Below, piece by piece: positions 4,896-60,970 of a DNA stretch of 64,000 nt (positions within the stretch are counted from its first letter, which is position 1; each line of letters opens with the position of its first letter). Origin of the DNA: Escherichia phage PSD2002; sequence record OK335775.1. One strand, given 5' to 3'. The notes under the pieces are model-generated. The model saw only the letters and a list, made by a program, of their open reading frames with translations, ran no database searches and was not told the DNA's origin. The translations under genes and the position numbers were made by a program.

Positions 4896-5328
4896 GATTA
4901 ACAGAAATTTAGTTATCAAAAAACTTTGTTGTAAAAATCCAAATGCACAAGCATACAGGATGTTTTGGAGCGACGACCACCAATACCTAGGTTATTTTCT
5001 TGTTGATAGCGATGATCGAATTACAATGGCTCATAAACTTCTTAACAGAGAATTAAACCATTGGCAAGAACTTATTGCGGTGAGGTCTAAATTATTTTCT
5101 CGCAATACAATGCACCAATTGGTTTATTTTTTCGCCGAAGGTATTCCTGACAAGGTTGAGTTTGATGGATTCGAATTTAAAGACATCCTCCCAGACAACG
5201 AATTGAACGACCGCGTTAATATGGACATCCCTAGCAAGTATATCAAAAACAGTCTGTTGAAAATTCTGGAAGCTCCGGTTTATTCAATAGATGACCAGAT
5301 TTTTAATGCCTTTATGAATCGAGGTTAA
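4888..5328 (+). CDS. Hypothetical protein
   Basis: 146-aa ORF beginning at GTG 4888 (start uncertain), SD AAGAGG upstream; no similarity recognised. Confidence 0.45.
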   Translation: MNKINRNLVIKKLCCKNPNAQAYRMFWSDDHQYLGYFLVDSDDRITMAHKLLNRELNHWQELIAVRSKLFSRNTMHQLVYFFAEGIPDKVEFDGFEFKDILPDNELNDRVNMDIPSKYIKNSLLKILEAPVYSIDDQIFNAFMNRG

Positions 5329-5329
5329 T

Positions 5330-5551
5330 ATGTTTGTCTTAACTCAATTCTCTAAAGCGGTGTATAGTTACTCTTGTCAGTGGGAAGTCTTTATCGATTC
5401 TCCTTCACCTAAGTACGGTGTTTTTGGTCGAGTAACTACTCAAGCTTATGTTGCACGGCCAACTAAGCGCCAGCTTCGTAAACTTAAAAAGGCCCATCGC
5501 CAACTGATTGAGAGAAGGGAACAATATGAGTGCAATGTGTACGGGCTCTAA
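5330..5551 (+). CDS. Hypothetical small protein with basic C-terminal tail
   Basis: 73 aa; PTKRQLRKLKK motif paralogous to the tail of ORF 4303..4542. Confidence 0.45.
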   Translation: MFVLTQFSKAVYSYSCQWEVFIDSPSPKYGVFGRVTTQAYVARPTKRQLRKLKKAHRQLIERREQYECNVYGL

Positions 5552-5717
5552 GATTTCTGTATTCGAATTATTCGAAGAGTATGAAATCGTATCAAAGGAC
5601 CAAGAAGCTATCCATATTATTGCCGGTGATGGTGTGACTTGGATTATCCCACTGTATCATGAAGATACCTATGAAGTCACTGATGCGAATGGTGATAAAG
5701 CTATTTTCGTAATATAA
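5526..5717 (+). CDS. Hypothetical small protein
   Basis: ATG at 5526 after GAAGGG; ORF track begins at TTG 5508. Overlaps the end of the preceding ORF. Confidence 0.35.
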   Translation: MSAMCTGSKISVFELFEEYEIVSKDQEAIHIIAGDGVTWIIPLYHEDTYEVTDANGDKAIFVI

Positions 5718-5720
5718 ATA
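5713..5720 (+). promoter_or_regulatory. Late promoter motif TATAAATA
   Basis: Exact TATAAATA upstream of the small ORF at 5735. Confidence 0.4.
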
Positions 5721-5734
5721 AGGCCAGGAGCCTA

Positions 5735-5895
5735 TGAAATCTTTTAAAGAAGTTATGAACGAAGATATGGTCGCAGGCGATGCAGGTGGTAACCCATCTA
5801 ATATTGCCTCCGGAACTACCTCAGGCGCAGTCGTCAATAAAGGGCCTGAACAAATCCCATCTAAAAAGCGTAAAGAAAAATCCGAAAACGAATGA
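5735..5895 (+). CDS. Hypothetical small protein, possibly late-expressed
   Basis: 53-aa ORF below the ORF-track cutoff; SD AGGAG at 5725 and TATAAATA at 5713-5720 directly upstream. Confidence 0.35.
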
Positions 5896-5933
5896 TATAA
5901 TGGCTCTATTAATTTAGAGCCCAAGGAAAAATA

Positions 5934-6962
5934 ATGTCATATGTCGATAGAGAATTTGCTGTACGTGCCTTGAATTACCAACCTAAATTCAGACAAGTAA
6001 CTGGTAGTGATTTTAAATTAAACTGTCGTTGTCGTGTATGTGGCGACTCCCAAAAAGATGAGAACAAAGCTCGTTTTTGGGCCTATCCGGCTAATGATGG
6101 CTCCGTAATGCTGCACTGTTTTAACTGCGACTATTCAGCAGGAATTAAGAAGTATCTATACGAATATGAGCCGGATTTATATCGAGAATATATTCTTGAG
6201 AAACATAAAGAGCAATCGTTCGGGAGACAAGCTGCACCTAAGGTGGAGATATCTGAAAAAATTAAAGCTAAGATGCCTGTCATCGAAAAGCTTAATTTCT
6301 GTGAACGATTAGATAGAATGCCGAAGGACCATCCTATTATCAAATATGTAACACTACGTTGCATTCCTGAAAACAAATGGAATCGCTTATGGTTTACTAA
6401 AGAATGGCCGGCATTGGTGAACTCTGTCAATCCAGGGACCTATTCTAAAGAAATGCCTGAGCCTCGTTTGGTTATTCCAATTTTCAATAAGAATAAACAA
6501 ATTGAAAGTTTTCAGGGTCGAGCCTTACGTAAAGATGCTCCACAAAAGTATATTACAATAAAAGCTCATGACCAAGCTACAAAAATATATGGAATGGATA
6601 CAGTTGACGAACGTCAGTTGGTGTGGGTAATGGAAGGTCCTATTGATTCATTATTCGTACCTAATGCAATAGCAATTACTGGCGGGTCGTTGGACTTGGC
6701 TATGGTTCCGTGCAAAGAAACTAGGGTTTGGGCCCTTGATAGCGAAAGCCGCCACCCAGATACTATTTCAAGAATGAAAAAGCTTATCGAGGCTGGTGAA
6801 AAAGTAGTGTTTTGGGATAAGGTCCCTTGGCCTTCTAAAGATATTAACGATATGATTAGAAAAGACGGGGCGTCGCCGGAAGCAATACTAGAATATATGA
6901 AAAGTAATTACAGTCAAGGATTAATGGCTAAATTGAGATTACAACGGTATGCTAAAATATGA
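5934..6962 (+). CDS. 61: Gp61 DNA primase
   Basis: 342 aa; N-terminal zinc-binding CRCRVCGD...CFNC and Toprim-like core; matches T4 gp61 in size and sequence as recalled. Confidence 0.95.
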   Translation: MSYVDREFAVRALNYQPKFRQVTGSDFKLNCRCRVCGDSQKDENKARFWAYPANDGSVMLHCFNCDYSAGIKKYLYEYEPDLYREYILEKHKEQSFGRQAAPKVEISEKIKAKMPVIEKLNFCERLDRMPKDHPIIKYVTLRCIPENKWNRLWFTKEWPALVNSVNPGTYSKEMPEPRLVIPIFNKNKQIESFQGRALRKDAPQKYITIKAHDQATKIYGMDTVDERQLVWVMEGPIDSLFVPNAIAITGGSLDLAMVPCKETRVWALDSESRHPDTISRMKKLIEAGEKVVFWDKVPWPSKDINDMIRKDGASPEAILEYMKSNYSQGLMAKLRLQRYAKI

Positions 6963-7714
6963 ATTATAATAAAATTTATGACGATTTGGTTAATAGGGCC
7001 CTTGAAAGGGGTCTTATTAAAGAAAATTTAAAATACTATACAGAATCTCATCATATTATACCTGAATGTATAGGTGGGCCTGATATAGATTCAAACAAAG
7101 TATTATTTACGGCAAGAGAGCATTTTATAGCTCACATATTATTGTATAAGATTTATAAGTTGCCTAAATTAATATATGCTGTGCATATGATGTGCAATTC
7201 TAGCGAAAAGCACCAAAGAAATTCTAAGATGTATGACTGGCTTAGAAAGGAGCATAAAGCAGCCTTAAGTAAGAAAATGACCGATGCTTGGAAAGCCCCT
7301 GAATTTAGGACCAAAATGGTGGCGGCCTTATACCAAAGGCACAAAGATAAGCCCGTCACAGAGGAGACTAGGGAAAAACAGTCTAATTCTCTAAAGAGGT
7401 ATTATAAAGAAAATCCTATCTCTGAAGAAGCAAAAAAGAAAAATTCAGAAGCCCAAAAACAAAGGTTTAAAGATAGGCCTCAAACAGAAGAAACAAAAAG
7501 ATTAAGGAAGGACTCATGCAGAAAAACCCAAGGCACCCCTATATGGTTATGTAATTCGAATGGGGTAGGAATAGAAAAGTTTTCTTCTGCGGCAGAAGCT
7601 AAAGAAATCTTAGGATTGTCCGGGCACACCCAAAATATATACACCGCTTGTAAGCGAAACAAAGAAACCGGGAGATTGTATAAATCCTCCGGTTTAATTT
7701 GGAAATATCAATAA
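6959..7714 (+). CDS. HNH-family homing endonuclease (Mob/I-Hmu-like)
   Basis: 251 aa; HNH core HHIIPECIGGPD...N...EHFIAH followed by a Lys/Glu-rich repeat region and a C-terminal DNA-binding-like module; start overlaps the gene 61 stop (ATGA); markedly AT-rich codon usage compared with flanking genes. Confidence 0.8.
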   Translation: MNYNKIYDDLVNRALERGLIKENLKYYTESHHIIPECIGGPDIDSNKVLFTAREHFIAHILLYKIYKLPKLIYAVHMMCNSSEKHQRNSKMYDWLRKEHKAALSKKMTDAWKAPEFRTKMVAALYQRHKDKPVTEETREKQSNSLKRYYKENPISEEAKKKNSEAQKQRFKDRPQTEETKRLRKDSCRKTQGTPIWLCNSNGVGIEKFSSAAEAKEILGLSGHTQNIYTACKRNKETGRLYKSSGLIWKYQ

Positions 7715-7720
7715 TGGCAT

Positions 7721-7921
7721 TTAAACCTGCATACCTGTAAAGAATCCAATGATGCTCAACACGTGTTCCATAGTAACCGCAGGGAGAGTAATACCCTGAC
7801 TAGCCGCAACAGGTACAACTAAAAGATTCCATAGGAACACATCTAAAGCAAGGAAGCCCATCATGAGCTTTTTATCTTTCTTGCTGGTTAATTTCCAAAT
7901 TTGGTAAAATATACTACCCAT
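7721..7921 (-). CDS. Small hydrophobic (membrane) protein, antisense to the early-gene block
   Basis: 66 aa on - strand, strong SD (AGGAGG 5 nt before ATG), TATAAATA late-promoter motif on - strand at 7943-7950; fills a 206-bp gap not covered by any + strand ORF. Confidence 0.45.
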   Translation of the reverse strand: MGSIFYQIWKLTSKKDKKLMMGFLALDVFLWNLLVVPVAASQGITLPAVTMEHVLSIIGFFTGMQV

Positions 7922-7942: not shown

Positions 7943-7950
7943 TATTTATA
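7943..7950 (-). promoter_or_regulatory. Late promoter motif TATAAATA for antisense small ORF
   Basis: TATTTATA on + strand, i.e. TATAAATA on - strand, about 22 nt upstream of the - strand ATG at 7921. Confidence 0.45.
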
Positions 7951-8540: not shown

Positions 8541-8548
8541 TATAAATA
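8541..8548 (+). promoter_or_regulatory. Late promoter TATAAATA for soc
   Basis: Exact TATAAATA about 30 nt upstream of the soc start; soc is a late gene in T4. Confidence 0.65.
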
Positions 8549-8579
8549 CACCTGTAATTAAACAACAAAGGAGTTAATT

Positions 8580-8813
8580 ATGGGTGGTTTCGTTAATATC
8601 AAAACCTTTACACATCCAGCTGGTGAAGGTAAAGAAGTTAAAGGTACTGAGGTTTCGGTCCCGTTTGAGATTTATTCAAACGAGCACCGTATTGCAGACT
8701 CTCATTATCAGACTTTCCCTTCGGCCGTTGCAGCCTATACTACTGTAGTGACTGATGCAGCCGATTGGCGAACTAAGAACGCAGCAATGTTCACGCCGAC
8801 CCCAGTAGTTTAA
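8580..8813 (+). CDS. soc: Soc small outer capsid protein
   Basis: 77 aa; VNIKTF...HYQTFPS..AAYTTV matches T4 Soc; TATAAATA late promoter at 8541-8548; terminator downstream. Confidence 0.85.
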   Translation: MGGFVNIKTFTHPAGEGKEVKGTEVSVPFEIYSNEHRIADSHYQTFPSAVAAYTTVVTDAADWRTKNAAMFTPTPVV

Positions 8814-60251: not shown

Positions 60252-60575
60252 ATGGAACTTCCTATTAAAGCGGTCGGAGAATATGTTATTCTCGTTTCCG
60301 AACCAAAACAAGCCGGTGATGAAGAAACTACTGCATCTGGTATCGTTATTGGCAAACTTCATCAAGGTGAAATCCCTGAACTTTGTGAAATTTATTCTGT
60401 AGGACCTGATGTCCCTGAAGATTTTTGTGAAGTAGGCGATTTGACTCCACTTCCTGTTGGTAAGATTGCTAACGTGCCTCATCCGTTGGTTGCATTGGGT
60501 ATTAAACAACCTAAAGAAATTAAACAAAAATTCGTTACCTGTCACTATAAAGCTATTCCTTGCCTTTATAAGTGA
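60252..60575 (+). CDS. 31: Gp31 co-chaperonin (GroES analogue)
   Basis: 107 aa; [48 protein letters not shown] match T4 gp31. Confidence 0.9.
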
Positions 60576-60583
60576 TATAAATA
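60576..60583 (+). promoter_or_regulatory. Late-promoter-like TATAAATA downstream of gene 31
   Basis: Exact TATAAATA 140 nt upstream of rIII, at the start of an ORF-free structured interval. Confidence 0.35.
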
Positions 60584-60721
60584 ATAATATGGATTGGCTG
60601 CCGGACTAGTTAGTTAACCGGAGAATCCTAAGCGGTGGACTACAACTGAGAGACTTGCCGAAAGGAAGTGAAATTCAGAAGAACGTGTCCACCAATCTTT
60701 ATCTCGAATTGAGAAACTAAA

Positions 60722-60970
60722 ATGAACAAACAATTGAATCACGCTCTTGAACTGCAACGCAACGCTTGGAACAACGGTCACGAAAACTACGGCGCATCTA
60801 TTGATGTTGAGGCCGAAGCACTGGAAATCCTGCGTTATTTCAAACATCTGAATCCTGCTCAGGCTACTCTGGCTGCTGAACTGGAAGCTAAAGATGAACT
60901 GAAATTTGCTAAGCCTTTGGCTTCAGCAGCTCGTAAAGCAGTACGTCATTTTATTATTACCCTGAAGTAA
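60722..60970 (+). CDS. rIII: rIII lysis-inhibition accessory protein
   Basis: 82 aa after gene 31; size and position as T4 rIII. Confidence 0.8.
   Translation: MNKQLNHALELQRNAWNNGHENYGASIDVEAEALEILRYFKHLNPAQATLAAELEAKDELKFAKPLASAARKAVRHFIITLK

Follow-up and report, generated by a model that had tools for sequence, protein, structure and literature searches.

[quoted passage not shown] It occupies positions 5734-5895 of the window, by which the whole analysed stretch of 64,000 nucleotides (record OK335775.1) is meant, and it corresponds to gene 61.1 of phage T4. Because the product copies the stretch of gp23 around the maturation cut, it may well act in head assembly. The reading favoured here, with a probability of roughly 0.45, is that gp61.1 is a late-made accessory in head assembly or maturation that would be targeted to the prohead and cut by the prohead protease gp21. 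Three observations converge on head assembly, namely the copy of the gp23 maturation site and N-fist, a start that resembles those of the internal proteins, and a putative late promoter that is present in many lineages. The features on which the argument draws are the following (positions in the window, strand):

5526-5717, plus: upstream ORF of 63 aa (phrog_3249), similar to RB69 orf033c
5592-5924, minus: antisense "shadow" ORF of 110 aa, starting with TTG and lacking a ribosome-binding site, not a gene
5713-5720, plus: T4-type late promoter motif, exact TATAAATA, 21 nt before the ATG of 61.1
5726-5730, plus: Shine-Dalgarno sequence AGGAG, separated from the ATG by 3 nt; the late transcript is predicted to begin here, at ~5726
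5734-5895, plus: gene 61.1 ortholog, 53 codons from the ATG at 5734 and a TGA stop (5893-5895)
5734-5763, plus: codons 1-10 of 61.1, MKSFKEVMNE, capsid-targeting-like leader with predicted gp21 cleavage after Glu10
5764-5850, plus: codons 11-39 of 61.1, DMVAGDAGGNPSNIASGTTSGAVVNKGPE, paralog of the gp23* N-fist (gp23 66-94)
5851-5892, plus: codons 40-53 of 61.1, QIPSKKRKEKSENE, charged tail in which a KK(R)K patch is conserved
5893-5921, plus: TGATATAAT followed by the hairpin GGCTCTA-ttaatt-TAGAGCC (fold z-score -3.7)
5934-6962, plus: DNA primase gene 61 (342 aa), the downstream neighbour

Gene 61.1, its relatives and the antisense ORF

The region is 99.3-99.6 % identical to those of Dhakavirus WG01, PSD9, and Salmonella phage ABTNLS3, which are T4-like Straboviridae. 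The ORF at 5734-5895 is annotated as gene 61.1, "hypothetical protein", in the records of IME08 and WG01, in which the gene order is uvsX-40-41-dmd-61.4-sp-...-61.1-61(primase)-56-soc; that of T4 is likewise. The window gene holds the position of the family, directly 5' of primase gene 61 and 3' of dmd/sp/61.2. Its 53-aa product, MKSFKEVMNEDMVAGDAGGNPSNIASGTTSGAVVNKGPEQIPSKKRKEKSENE, contains 6 Gly and 6 Ser residues and has a tail rich in Lys, Arg, and Glu. It matches the profile of phrog_1823, a family labelled "unknown function", with an E-value of 5.1e-32, residues 1-53 falling on positions 1-53 of the 54 in the profile. By these comparisons, the ORF is the Dhakavirus ortholog of T4 gene 61.1, already annotated and without an assigned function; both this identity and its status as a real gene are held with high confidence. 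An earlier note, made from the letters of the window alone, had drawn attention to a Gly/Ser-rich 53-aa ORF with a basic C-terminus. That the ORF is real is borne out by the annotation, the phrog_1823 match, and purifying selection; it is not new, having been annotated before.

Conservation of the ORF in relatives, which had been named as a check, was seen both by tblastn and by codon comparison. The tblastn search matched 1517 phage records, among them records that match at gp23 only, and the matches span phages of Escherichia, Klebsiella, Aeromonas, Acinetobacter, and Vibrio as well as other phages. Against relatives at 100-73 % protein identity, the pN/pS of the plus frame is 0.09-0.31 and the differences lie mainly at third codon positions (for example, 4/0/22 and 7/3/22 by position). 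The core AGD.GG..NIA.GTTSGAVVNKGP is almost invariant in the alignment of the family, K44 is fully so, and every form, short or long, has the basic patch.

At this locus, the longest ORF lies on the other strand, an annotation lesson in itself, as it is a shadow ORF. The 110-aa antisense frame (5592-5924, minus) is free of stops in 13 of the 14 short-form relatives checked, which together with its length could be taken to favour a true gene. An open frame also fits, however, a sense gene without TTA, CTA, or TCA codons, which read as stops on the opposite strand; the 53-aa product contains no Leu. The absence of a ribosome-binding site, remarked upon in the earlier note, was seen again: the ORF has a TTG start and no Shine-Dalgarno sequence. 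Substitutions concentrate on the third positions of the plus frame, where changes would alter the antisense amino acids, the family matches belong to the plus frame, and the ORF is absent from both feature tables compared (WG01 and IME08). It was rejected as a gene on its start, its missing ribosome-binding site, and the pattern of substitutions, and the chance that it is one after all is considered negligible.

T4 gp61.1 (NP_049649, T4p034; phrog_1823), MKTFKEFIKEDMVAGDSGGNPENISIGTTSGAVVNKGPEQIPKKKKEESKEKEE, is 54 aa long as compared with the 53 aa of the window protein, is 77 % identical to it in the family alignment, and has the same core motif; its gene, too, lies directly upstream of primase gene 61. 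In T4, 61.1 adjoins 61.2 with a gap of 1 nt and has no late motif, whereas the window carries two extra small ORFs between the 61.2-like gene and 61.1 as well as the exact late motif. Long forms of 121-177 aa (phrog_2086), with the same module at their C-terminal end, occur in RB69-like, S16-like, RB43-like, Acinetobacter, Aeromonas, and Vibrio phages; that of the KVP40-like Vibrio phage phi-pp2 is annotated as a 159-aa gp61.1. They share with the short form this module, the site before (D/E)MVAGD, the place 5' of the primase gene and, often, an xATAAATA upstream, but a helical N-terminal domain of ~105 residues replaces the leader of 10 residues. The domain is predicted to be helical with a pLDDT of 80-91 over residues 11-70, and the 61.1-like module is predicted to be disordered in the model of the long form. 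The domain recurs in about 2000 protein clusters, joined to C-terminal parts of various kinds, and its fold had no match among solved structures.

Gene 61.1 has been of unknown function since it was listed among the conserved T4-like ORFs without one (Nolan et al. 2006, PMC1524935). It still is in the annotation of a 2025 CRISPRi-ART screen, in which its knock-down was scored "Not Fit", that is, the gene is dispensable on the laboratory host (PMC11879866). The published mentions found for gp61.1, including those sought together with capsid targeting, virion, or mass spectrometry, were annotation tables only.

A late-promoter motif in front of gene 61.1

Gene 61.1 sits within a co-directional string of early genes, dmd-sp-61.2-61, without a terminator upstream, so that early read-through into the gene is likely. 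It is also preceded by an exact TATAAATA at 5713-5720 and by AGGAG at 5726-5730, both of which the earlier note had reported. The TATAAATA overlaps the TAA stop (5715-5717) of the upstream 63-aa ORF. In T4 late promoters, the motif usually lies at -13 to -6; when this geometry is applied to the motif at 5713-5720, the late transcript is predicted to start at ~5726 and would have a leader of 8 nt that begins with AGGAG. Both the predicted leader of 8 nt and the spacing of 3 nt between the Shine-Dalgarno sequence and the ATG are unusually short.

The mere number of TATAAATA sequences in the window (7, with 6.5 expected from shuffles) equals chance expectation and was discarded as evidence; placement and conservation were used instead. 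Six of the seven stand 21-71 nt 5' of a start codon on the same strand, known late genes among them, the starts being those of 61.1 (21 nt), holin t (26 nt), a 66-aa minus-strand ORF (29 nt), soc (39 nt), tail-fibre gene 34 (40 nt), and a 751-aa nrdA-like gene. As to conservation, 62 loci encoding relatives were fetched and grouped into 32 clusters with distinct upstream sequence, and the region from -45 to -14 was compared with the same region of 261 other co-directional gene starts in these loci. TATAAATA was present in 7 of the 32 clusters (expected from base frequency, 0.09; controls, 3/261; Fisher 9e-6), NATAAATA/ATAAATA in 13 (expected, 0.16; controls, 5/261; Fisher 1.5e-10), and TAAATA in 23 (expected, 0.53; controls, 5/261; Fisher 3e-22), the p-values being rough because the clusters are not phylogenetically independent. 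The late-type promoter suggested in the earlier note gains from this comparison, as TATAAATA or NATAAATA stands at the same place in 13/32 lineages versus 5/261 starts.

Every Dhakavirus locus has the exact motif, as do loci of other genera, at a distance of 21-35 nt ahead of the 61.1-family start codon, and it stays with this gene despite differing upstream neighbours. It is absent before 61.1 in T4, T2, T6, and the RB43 group; upstream of T4 61.1, no TATAAATA is found within 130 nt. Conservation of the motif, another check named in the earlier note, thus holds for the former phages and fails for the latter. The T4 61.1 transcript has been classed as early, as have those of ipII, ipIII, and gene 40 in the same study (PMC9697503 Table S2), and T4 gp61.1 went undetected in the time-course proteome (PMC9697503).

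The earlier note had also proposed that late small genes are interleaved with early ones in this part of the genome. Two other units share the layout of 61.1 and fit this view, soc (TATAAATA at 8541) and the 66-aa minus-strand ORF, which is preceded by TATAAATA at 7943-7950 and then by AGGAGG. Like 61.1, soc is a small gene on the same strand with its own TATAAATA in the early region, 2.6 kb downstream of 61.1. It differs in the distance of 39 nt between promoter and ATG and in the hairpin over its ribosome-binding site, whereas for 61.1 no significant hairpin of the soc/e type was found, only a 4-bp stem with a z-score of -0.15.

At the 3' end of gene 61.1, TGATATAAT, an extended -10-like sequence that overlaps the stop codon, is followed by a hairpin at 5902-5921. 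The combination of TATAATGG and a GC hairpin recurs in many genera with compensatory changes in the stem. A T-run comes after the hairpin in two loci of relatives, L015 and L016, and there is none in the window. This element possibly marks where the 61.1 unit ends, or supplies primase gene 61 with a promoter or a 5' hairpin, or does both; an Rfam search of 5000-6600 gave no relevant match.

On its placement and conservation, the TATAAATA in front of 61.1 is probably a functional late promoter. It could instead be a by-product of the TAA stop in an A+T-rich junction, with 61.1 being expressed only by early or middle read-through. This would agree with its overlap with the stop codon, with the shuffle expectation for the window as a whole, with the early class of the T4 61.1 mRNA, and with the fact that T4, T2, and T6 keep 61.1 without the motif. 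A chance product of this kind would not, however, be expected to recur behind different upstream genes, nor would it account for 7/32 and 13/32 in the 61.1 family when the controls give 3/261 for TATAAATA and 5/261 for ATAAATA, and this explanation is considered very improbable. A working promoter might also serve mainly the late transcription of primase gene 61, 56, and soc, with 61.1 merely being the first ORF on the transcript. Same-strand genes do follow 61.1 directly and, as the hairpin in the window has no T-run, read-through into gene 61 is plausible. Yet the motif accompanies the 61.1-family gene irrespective of the upstream neighbour, the hairpin with its T-run in L015 and L016 is terminator-like, and soc has a TATAAATA of its own; moreover, we know of no need for late primase synthesis. 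A promoter meant for the downstream genes is therefore thought unlikely, and a late promoter for 61.1 itself is preferred. No earlier description of a late motif before 61.1 was found in a literature search.

Likeness to the gp23 maturation site and to internal-protein leaders

The likeness of gp61.1 to gp23 was obtained in several ways. BLASTP aligned residues 2-46 of the 53-mer without gaps with residues 55-99 of WG01 gp23 (E 1e-8), hhalign aligned the 61.1 family profile with gp23 55-95 (probability 95.5 %, E 1.5e-8), and phmmer aligned residues 3-39 of T4 gp61.1 with gp23 58-94 of PDB 6uzc. In most genomes, tblastn gave two matching places, the second of which is gene 23. The alignment of 61.1 residues 3-39 with gp23 58-94 is ungapped, which puts Glu10|Asp11 of gp61.1 in register with the maturation cut Glu65|Ala66 of gp23, where the prohead protease cleaves (PMC7136217; PMC9546572). 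At this site, FLTE|AEIGGDHGYDATNIAAGQTSGAVTQIGP in gp23 is aligned with VMNE|DMVAGDAGGNPSNIASGTTSGAVVNKGP in gp61.1; the likeness extends over 37-41 residues without gaps (FLTE|AEIGGDHGY.ATNIAAGQTSGAVTQIGP in gp23). Mature gp23* begins with a 25-residue "N-fist" (PMC9958956) and, by its position in the alignment, the copied segment thus runs from the last residues of the propeptide across the cut site and through this N-fist. In the unexpanded head, residues 66-105 of gp23 are disordered and are thought to be inside, probably touching the scaffolding core, while upon expansion they become the N-arm and N-fist and contribute to the Soc site; A66D, A94V, and G97S, which are head-length mutations, fall within the same region (PMC9546572).

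The HK97-fold body of gp23 (A, P, and I domains) is absent from 61.1, of which only residues 3-39 match gp23 58-94, and Pfam gave no match for the short or the long forms. The automatic database name "major capsid domain-containing protein", which is the sole trace found of the likeness to gp23, consequently overstates a match of 37 residues. Both proteins have their own signature, MVAGDSGG in 61.1 and (I/V)xGDHGYD in gp23, as compared in Escherichia, Aeromonas, and Vibrio phages. Their separate conservation means that the duplication is old and that both copies are constrained. A literature search found no earlier description of the mimicry of the gp23 maturation site or of the leader of 61.1 that resembles a capsid targeting sequence (CTS).

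The first ten residues of gp61.1 were scored with six annotated leaders of WG01 internal proteins as the reference, with the following results:

41-44: nine CTS-type starts of WG01 (six of them the references), MKTYKEFIAE, MKSYQEFINE, MKSYQEFIAE, MKAYQEFITE, and others
40: 61.1 of T2/T6, MKTYKEFIKE
36: 61.1 of T4, MKTFKEFIKE
29: UvsW.1 of WG01, MKTFKEVIQE, not known as a head protein
26.5: 61.1 of the window, MKSFKEVMNE

The window leader ranks first among the 648 Met starts in the window and stays well below the true leaders; since UvsW.1 scores higher, resemblance of the leader alone is not decisive. According to work from the Black laboratory, residues 4 and 7 of the CTS drive targeting and residues 8 and 10 processing, and gp21 cuts after L/I-X-E (PMC9026906). 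All four residues are retained in the T2/T6 leader, whereas in that of the window the Tyr, Phe, and Ile/Leu of the internal proteins are replaced by Phe4, Val7, and Met8. The site is I-K-E in T4 and M-N-E, with Met at P3, in the window. A hydrophobic-x-Glu sequence, itself a very short motif, stands directly before (D/E)MVAGD in every short and long form inspected (examples are IKE|D, MNE|D, LFE|D, MNE|E, IIE|E, LSE|M, LQE|M, and VDE|D). At the DNA level, 19-26 of the first 30 nt of 61.1 are identical to those of internal-protein genes; phrog_5341, "internal virion protein", matched 61.1 weakly (E 0.31).

Like gp61.1, the internal proteins (IPI, IPII, and IPIII of T4; Ip7, Ip9, and relatives of Dhakavirus) are small and start with M-K-[STA]-[YF]-x-E-[FV]-[ILM]-x-E, and Glu10, the position at which gp21 cuts them, is present in 61.1 as well. 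The internal proteins are non-essential. T4 61.1 is likewise dispensable on knock-down (PMC11879866). The differences are that 61.1 lies outside the internal-protein gene clusters, that its mature part is highly conserved, in contrast to the hypervariable internal proteins, that the leader of the window protein is more diverged, and that its presence in heads is only proposed. The T4 head literature examined, including the SPN3US/T4 head paper, does not mention 61.1.

A proposed role in head assembly

In the proposed mechanism, the gp55-RNA polymerase would transcribe 61.1 late from ~5726, besides the early read-through, and a late mRNA with a short leader would cause the protein to accumulate together with the head proteins. 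The leader MKSFKEVMNE would act as a capsid targeting sequence, or in the manner of the end of the gp23 propeptide, and bring 61.1 to the scaffolding core of the prohead. There, gp21 would cut after Glu10 of the hydrophobic-x-Glu site and release a peptide of 43 residues consisting of the N-fist-like segment and the Lys-rich tail. The predicted peptide, with Asp11 at its N-terminus, is DMVAGDAGGNPSNIASGTTSGAVVNK, its T4 counterpart being DMVAGDSGGNPENISIGTTSGAVVNK. It might stay in the head or compete for the partners of the gp23 N-terminus, candidates for which are the scaffold or the protease inside the prohead and, after expansion, the N-fist pockets. A partner specific to Soc was considered and set aside, since the 61.1 family is wider, being present in Aeromonas, Acinetobacter, and Vibrio phages also, and soc is annotated in only a few T4 relatives. 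On this reading, 61.1 is a candidate new member of the gp21-processed prohead proteins, among which are the internal proteins, Alt, gp67, and gp68; prohead targeting and gp21 cleavage, taken as steps in themselves, are put forward tentatively, at somewhat less than even odds. Among the points against a role in the head is that many genera have the helical domain of ~105 residues instead of the leader.

The main rival to a function in head assembly is that gp61.1 remains cytoplasmic and serves as a decoy or competitor for a factor recognising the N-terminal portion of gp23 as it is newly made. It would be made late to coincide with gp23 and would never be packaged; its partner could be a host capsid-sensing defence, EF-Tu/Lit, or a chaperone or protease. 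Mimicry of a gp23 segment fits such a decoy, and the neighbourhood contains the counter-defence genes dmd, sp, and 61.2 (= tifA). The dispensability of 61.1 on the laboratory host (PMC11879866), the failure to detect gp61.1 in the T4 proteome time course (PMC9697503), and the observation that EF-Tu is bound more stably by ~100 residues of the first quarter of gp23 than by just the 29-residue Gol peptide (PMC3014915) are also in its favour. A decoy would, however, leave the in-register hydrophobic-x-Glu site and the targeting-like leader without a role, and the conservation of the family from Vibrio to Acinetobacter phages is easier to reconcile with a phage-internal partner than with a host-specific sensor. 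In addition, the copied segment presumably ends just before the conserved Gol core (MVRRAIPNLIAFD...), and we know of no defence system that senses gp23 residues 55-95, both of which count against a decoy. A cytoplasmic decoy is thus regarded as rather unlikely, and head assembly remains the preferred reading.

A bolder version of the head-assembly reading, which is worth stating although it is doubtful, is that gp61.1 and its long-form relatives represent an unrecognised and nearly universal component of T4-like head assembly, a free N-fist peptide released by gp21. The propeptide would then be either the CTS-like leader of 10 residues or the helical domain of ~105 residues, and the peptide would fill sites for the gp23 N-terminus on the scaffold, the protease, or the expanded lattice. 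The N-fist of gp23 may be absent next to the gp24 vertices or the portal, which are examples of such sites.

In conclusion, the head-assembly hypothesis is concrete and can be tested with the standard tools available for T4. The N-terminal domain of the long forms is flagged as a candidate protein-packaging tag; if the bolder version were true, this widespread domain would be a second, undescribed capsid-targeting module with variable cargo. If the proposed role in the head holds true, gp61.1 would be a new component in one of the best-studied virus assembly pathways.

Hairpins at 61.1 and soc

Downstream of 61.1, the ortholog of T4 gene 61.1 that precedes the primase gene 61, GGCTCTA/ttaatt/TAGAGCC, a GC-rich hairpin with a fold z-score of -3.7, follows TGATATAAT:

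5893-5921, plus strand: TGATATAAT, immediately 3' of the 61.1 stop codon and extended -10-like, with the hairpin
8541-8548: TATAAATA, the exact T4-type late promoter motif, of soc

In many genera, TATAATGG and a hairpin likewise lie between 61.1 and the primase gene, with compensatory changes in the stem (GGCCTTA/TAAGGCC, GGCTCTC/GAGAGCC, and GGAACCA/TGGTTCC) and, in some relatives, a T-run 3' of the hairpin. The structure could terminate the 61.1 unit, form a 5' hairpin on a gene 61 transcript, or do both.

A further hairpin is predicted at soc (8541-8600; z -2.4), in which the stretch just 3' of the promoter is paired with the start codon and ribosome-binding site of the gene. The predicted fold resembles a known arrangement of T4, where transcripts from early read-through are translated poorly.

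Other late motifs and a homing endonuclease

Features downstream of the primase gene and near the gene 31-like ORF are the following:

6959-7714: homing endonuclease gene, 251 aa (phrog_655)
7721-7921, minus strand: 66-aa ORF (phrog_2024, annotated as unknown function), corresponding to WG01 ORF29
7943-7950, minus strand: exact TATAAATA of the 66-aa ORF
60576-60583: seventh TATAAATA, immediately 3' of the gene 31-like ORF (60252-60575)
60584-60721: gap after the seventh motif

The endonuclease gene overlaps the primase stop codon. Since the relative WG01 lacks the gene at this position, and a mobE-type endonuclease is found near the corresponding position in IME08, the primase end appears from these comparisons to be a variable homing site. 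The 66-aa ORF, located between primase/endonuclease and gene 56 and antisense to early genes, encodes a product with a hydrophobic stretch and has its own TATAAATA 29 nt upstream, as well as AGGAGG. The seventh motif lies 146 nt ahead of an rIII-like ORF (60722-60970); in the region scanned, neither a tRNA nor an Rfam family was detected.

N-terminal domains and leaders

The helical N-domain (~105 residues) of the long-form 61.1 proteins defines a very large phage protein family (1955 cluster representatives; examples at loci L019, L026, L045, and others, proteins P0024-P0282), the members of which differ in their C-terminal parts. That of P0236 carries a ParB-like DGHH segment, and on an environmental contig (L068) one member adjoins a ribonucleotide reductase small-subunit gene.

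In WG01 (L005, 48-98 kb), nine ORFs have near-identical N-termini of the capsid targeting sequence (CTS) type. Their clusters lie upstream of 57B and around denV/e, and for several the only annotation is hypothetical protein. The N-terminus of WG01 UvsW.1 (L004, 14681-14908), MKTFKEVIQE, outscores the 61.1 leader of the window against capsid-targeting leaders. Either genomes of this kind may readily give rise to CTS-like starts, or UvsW.1 may itself be of interest.
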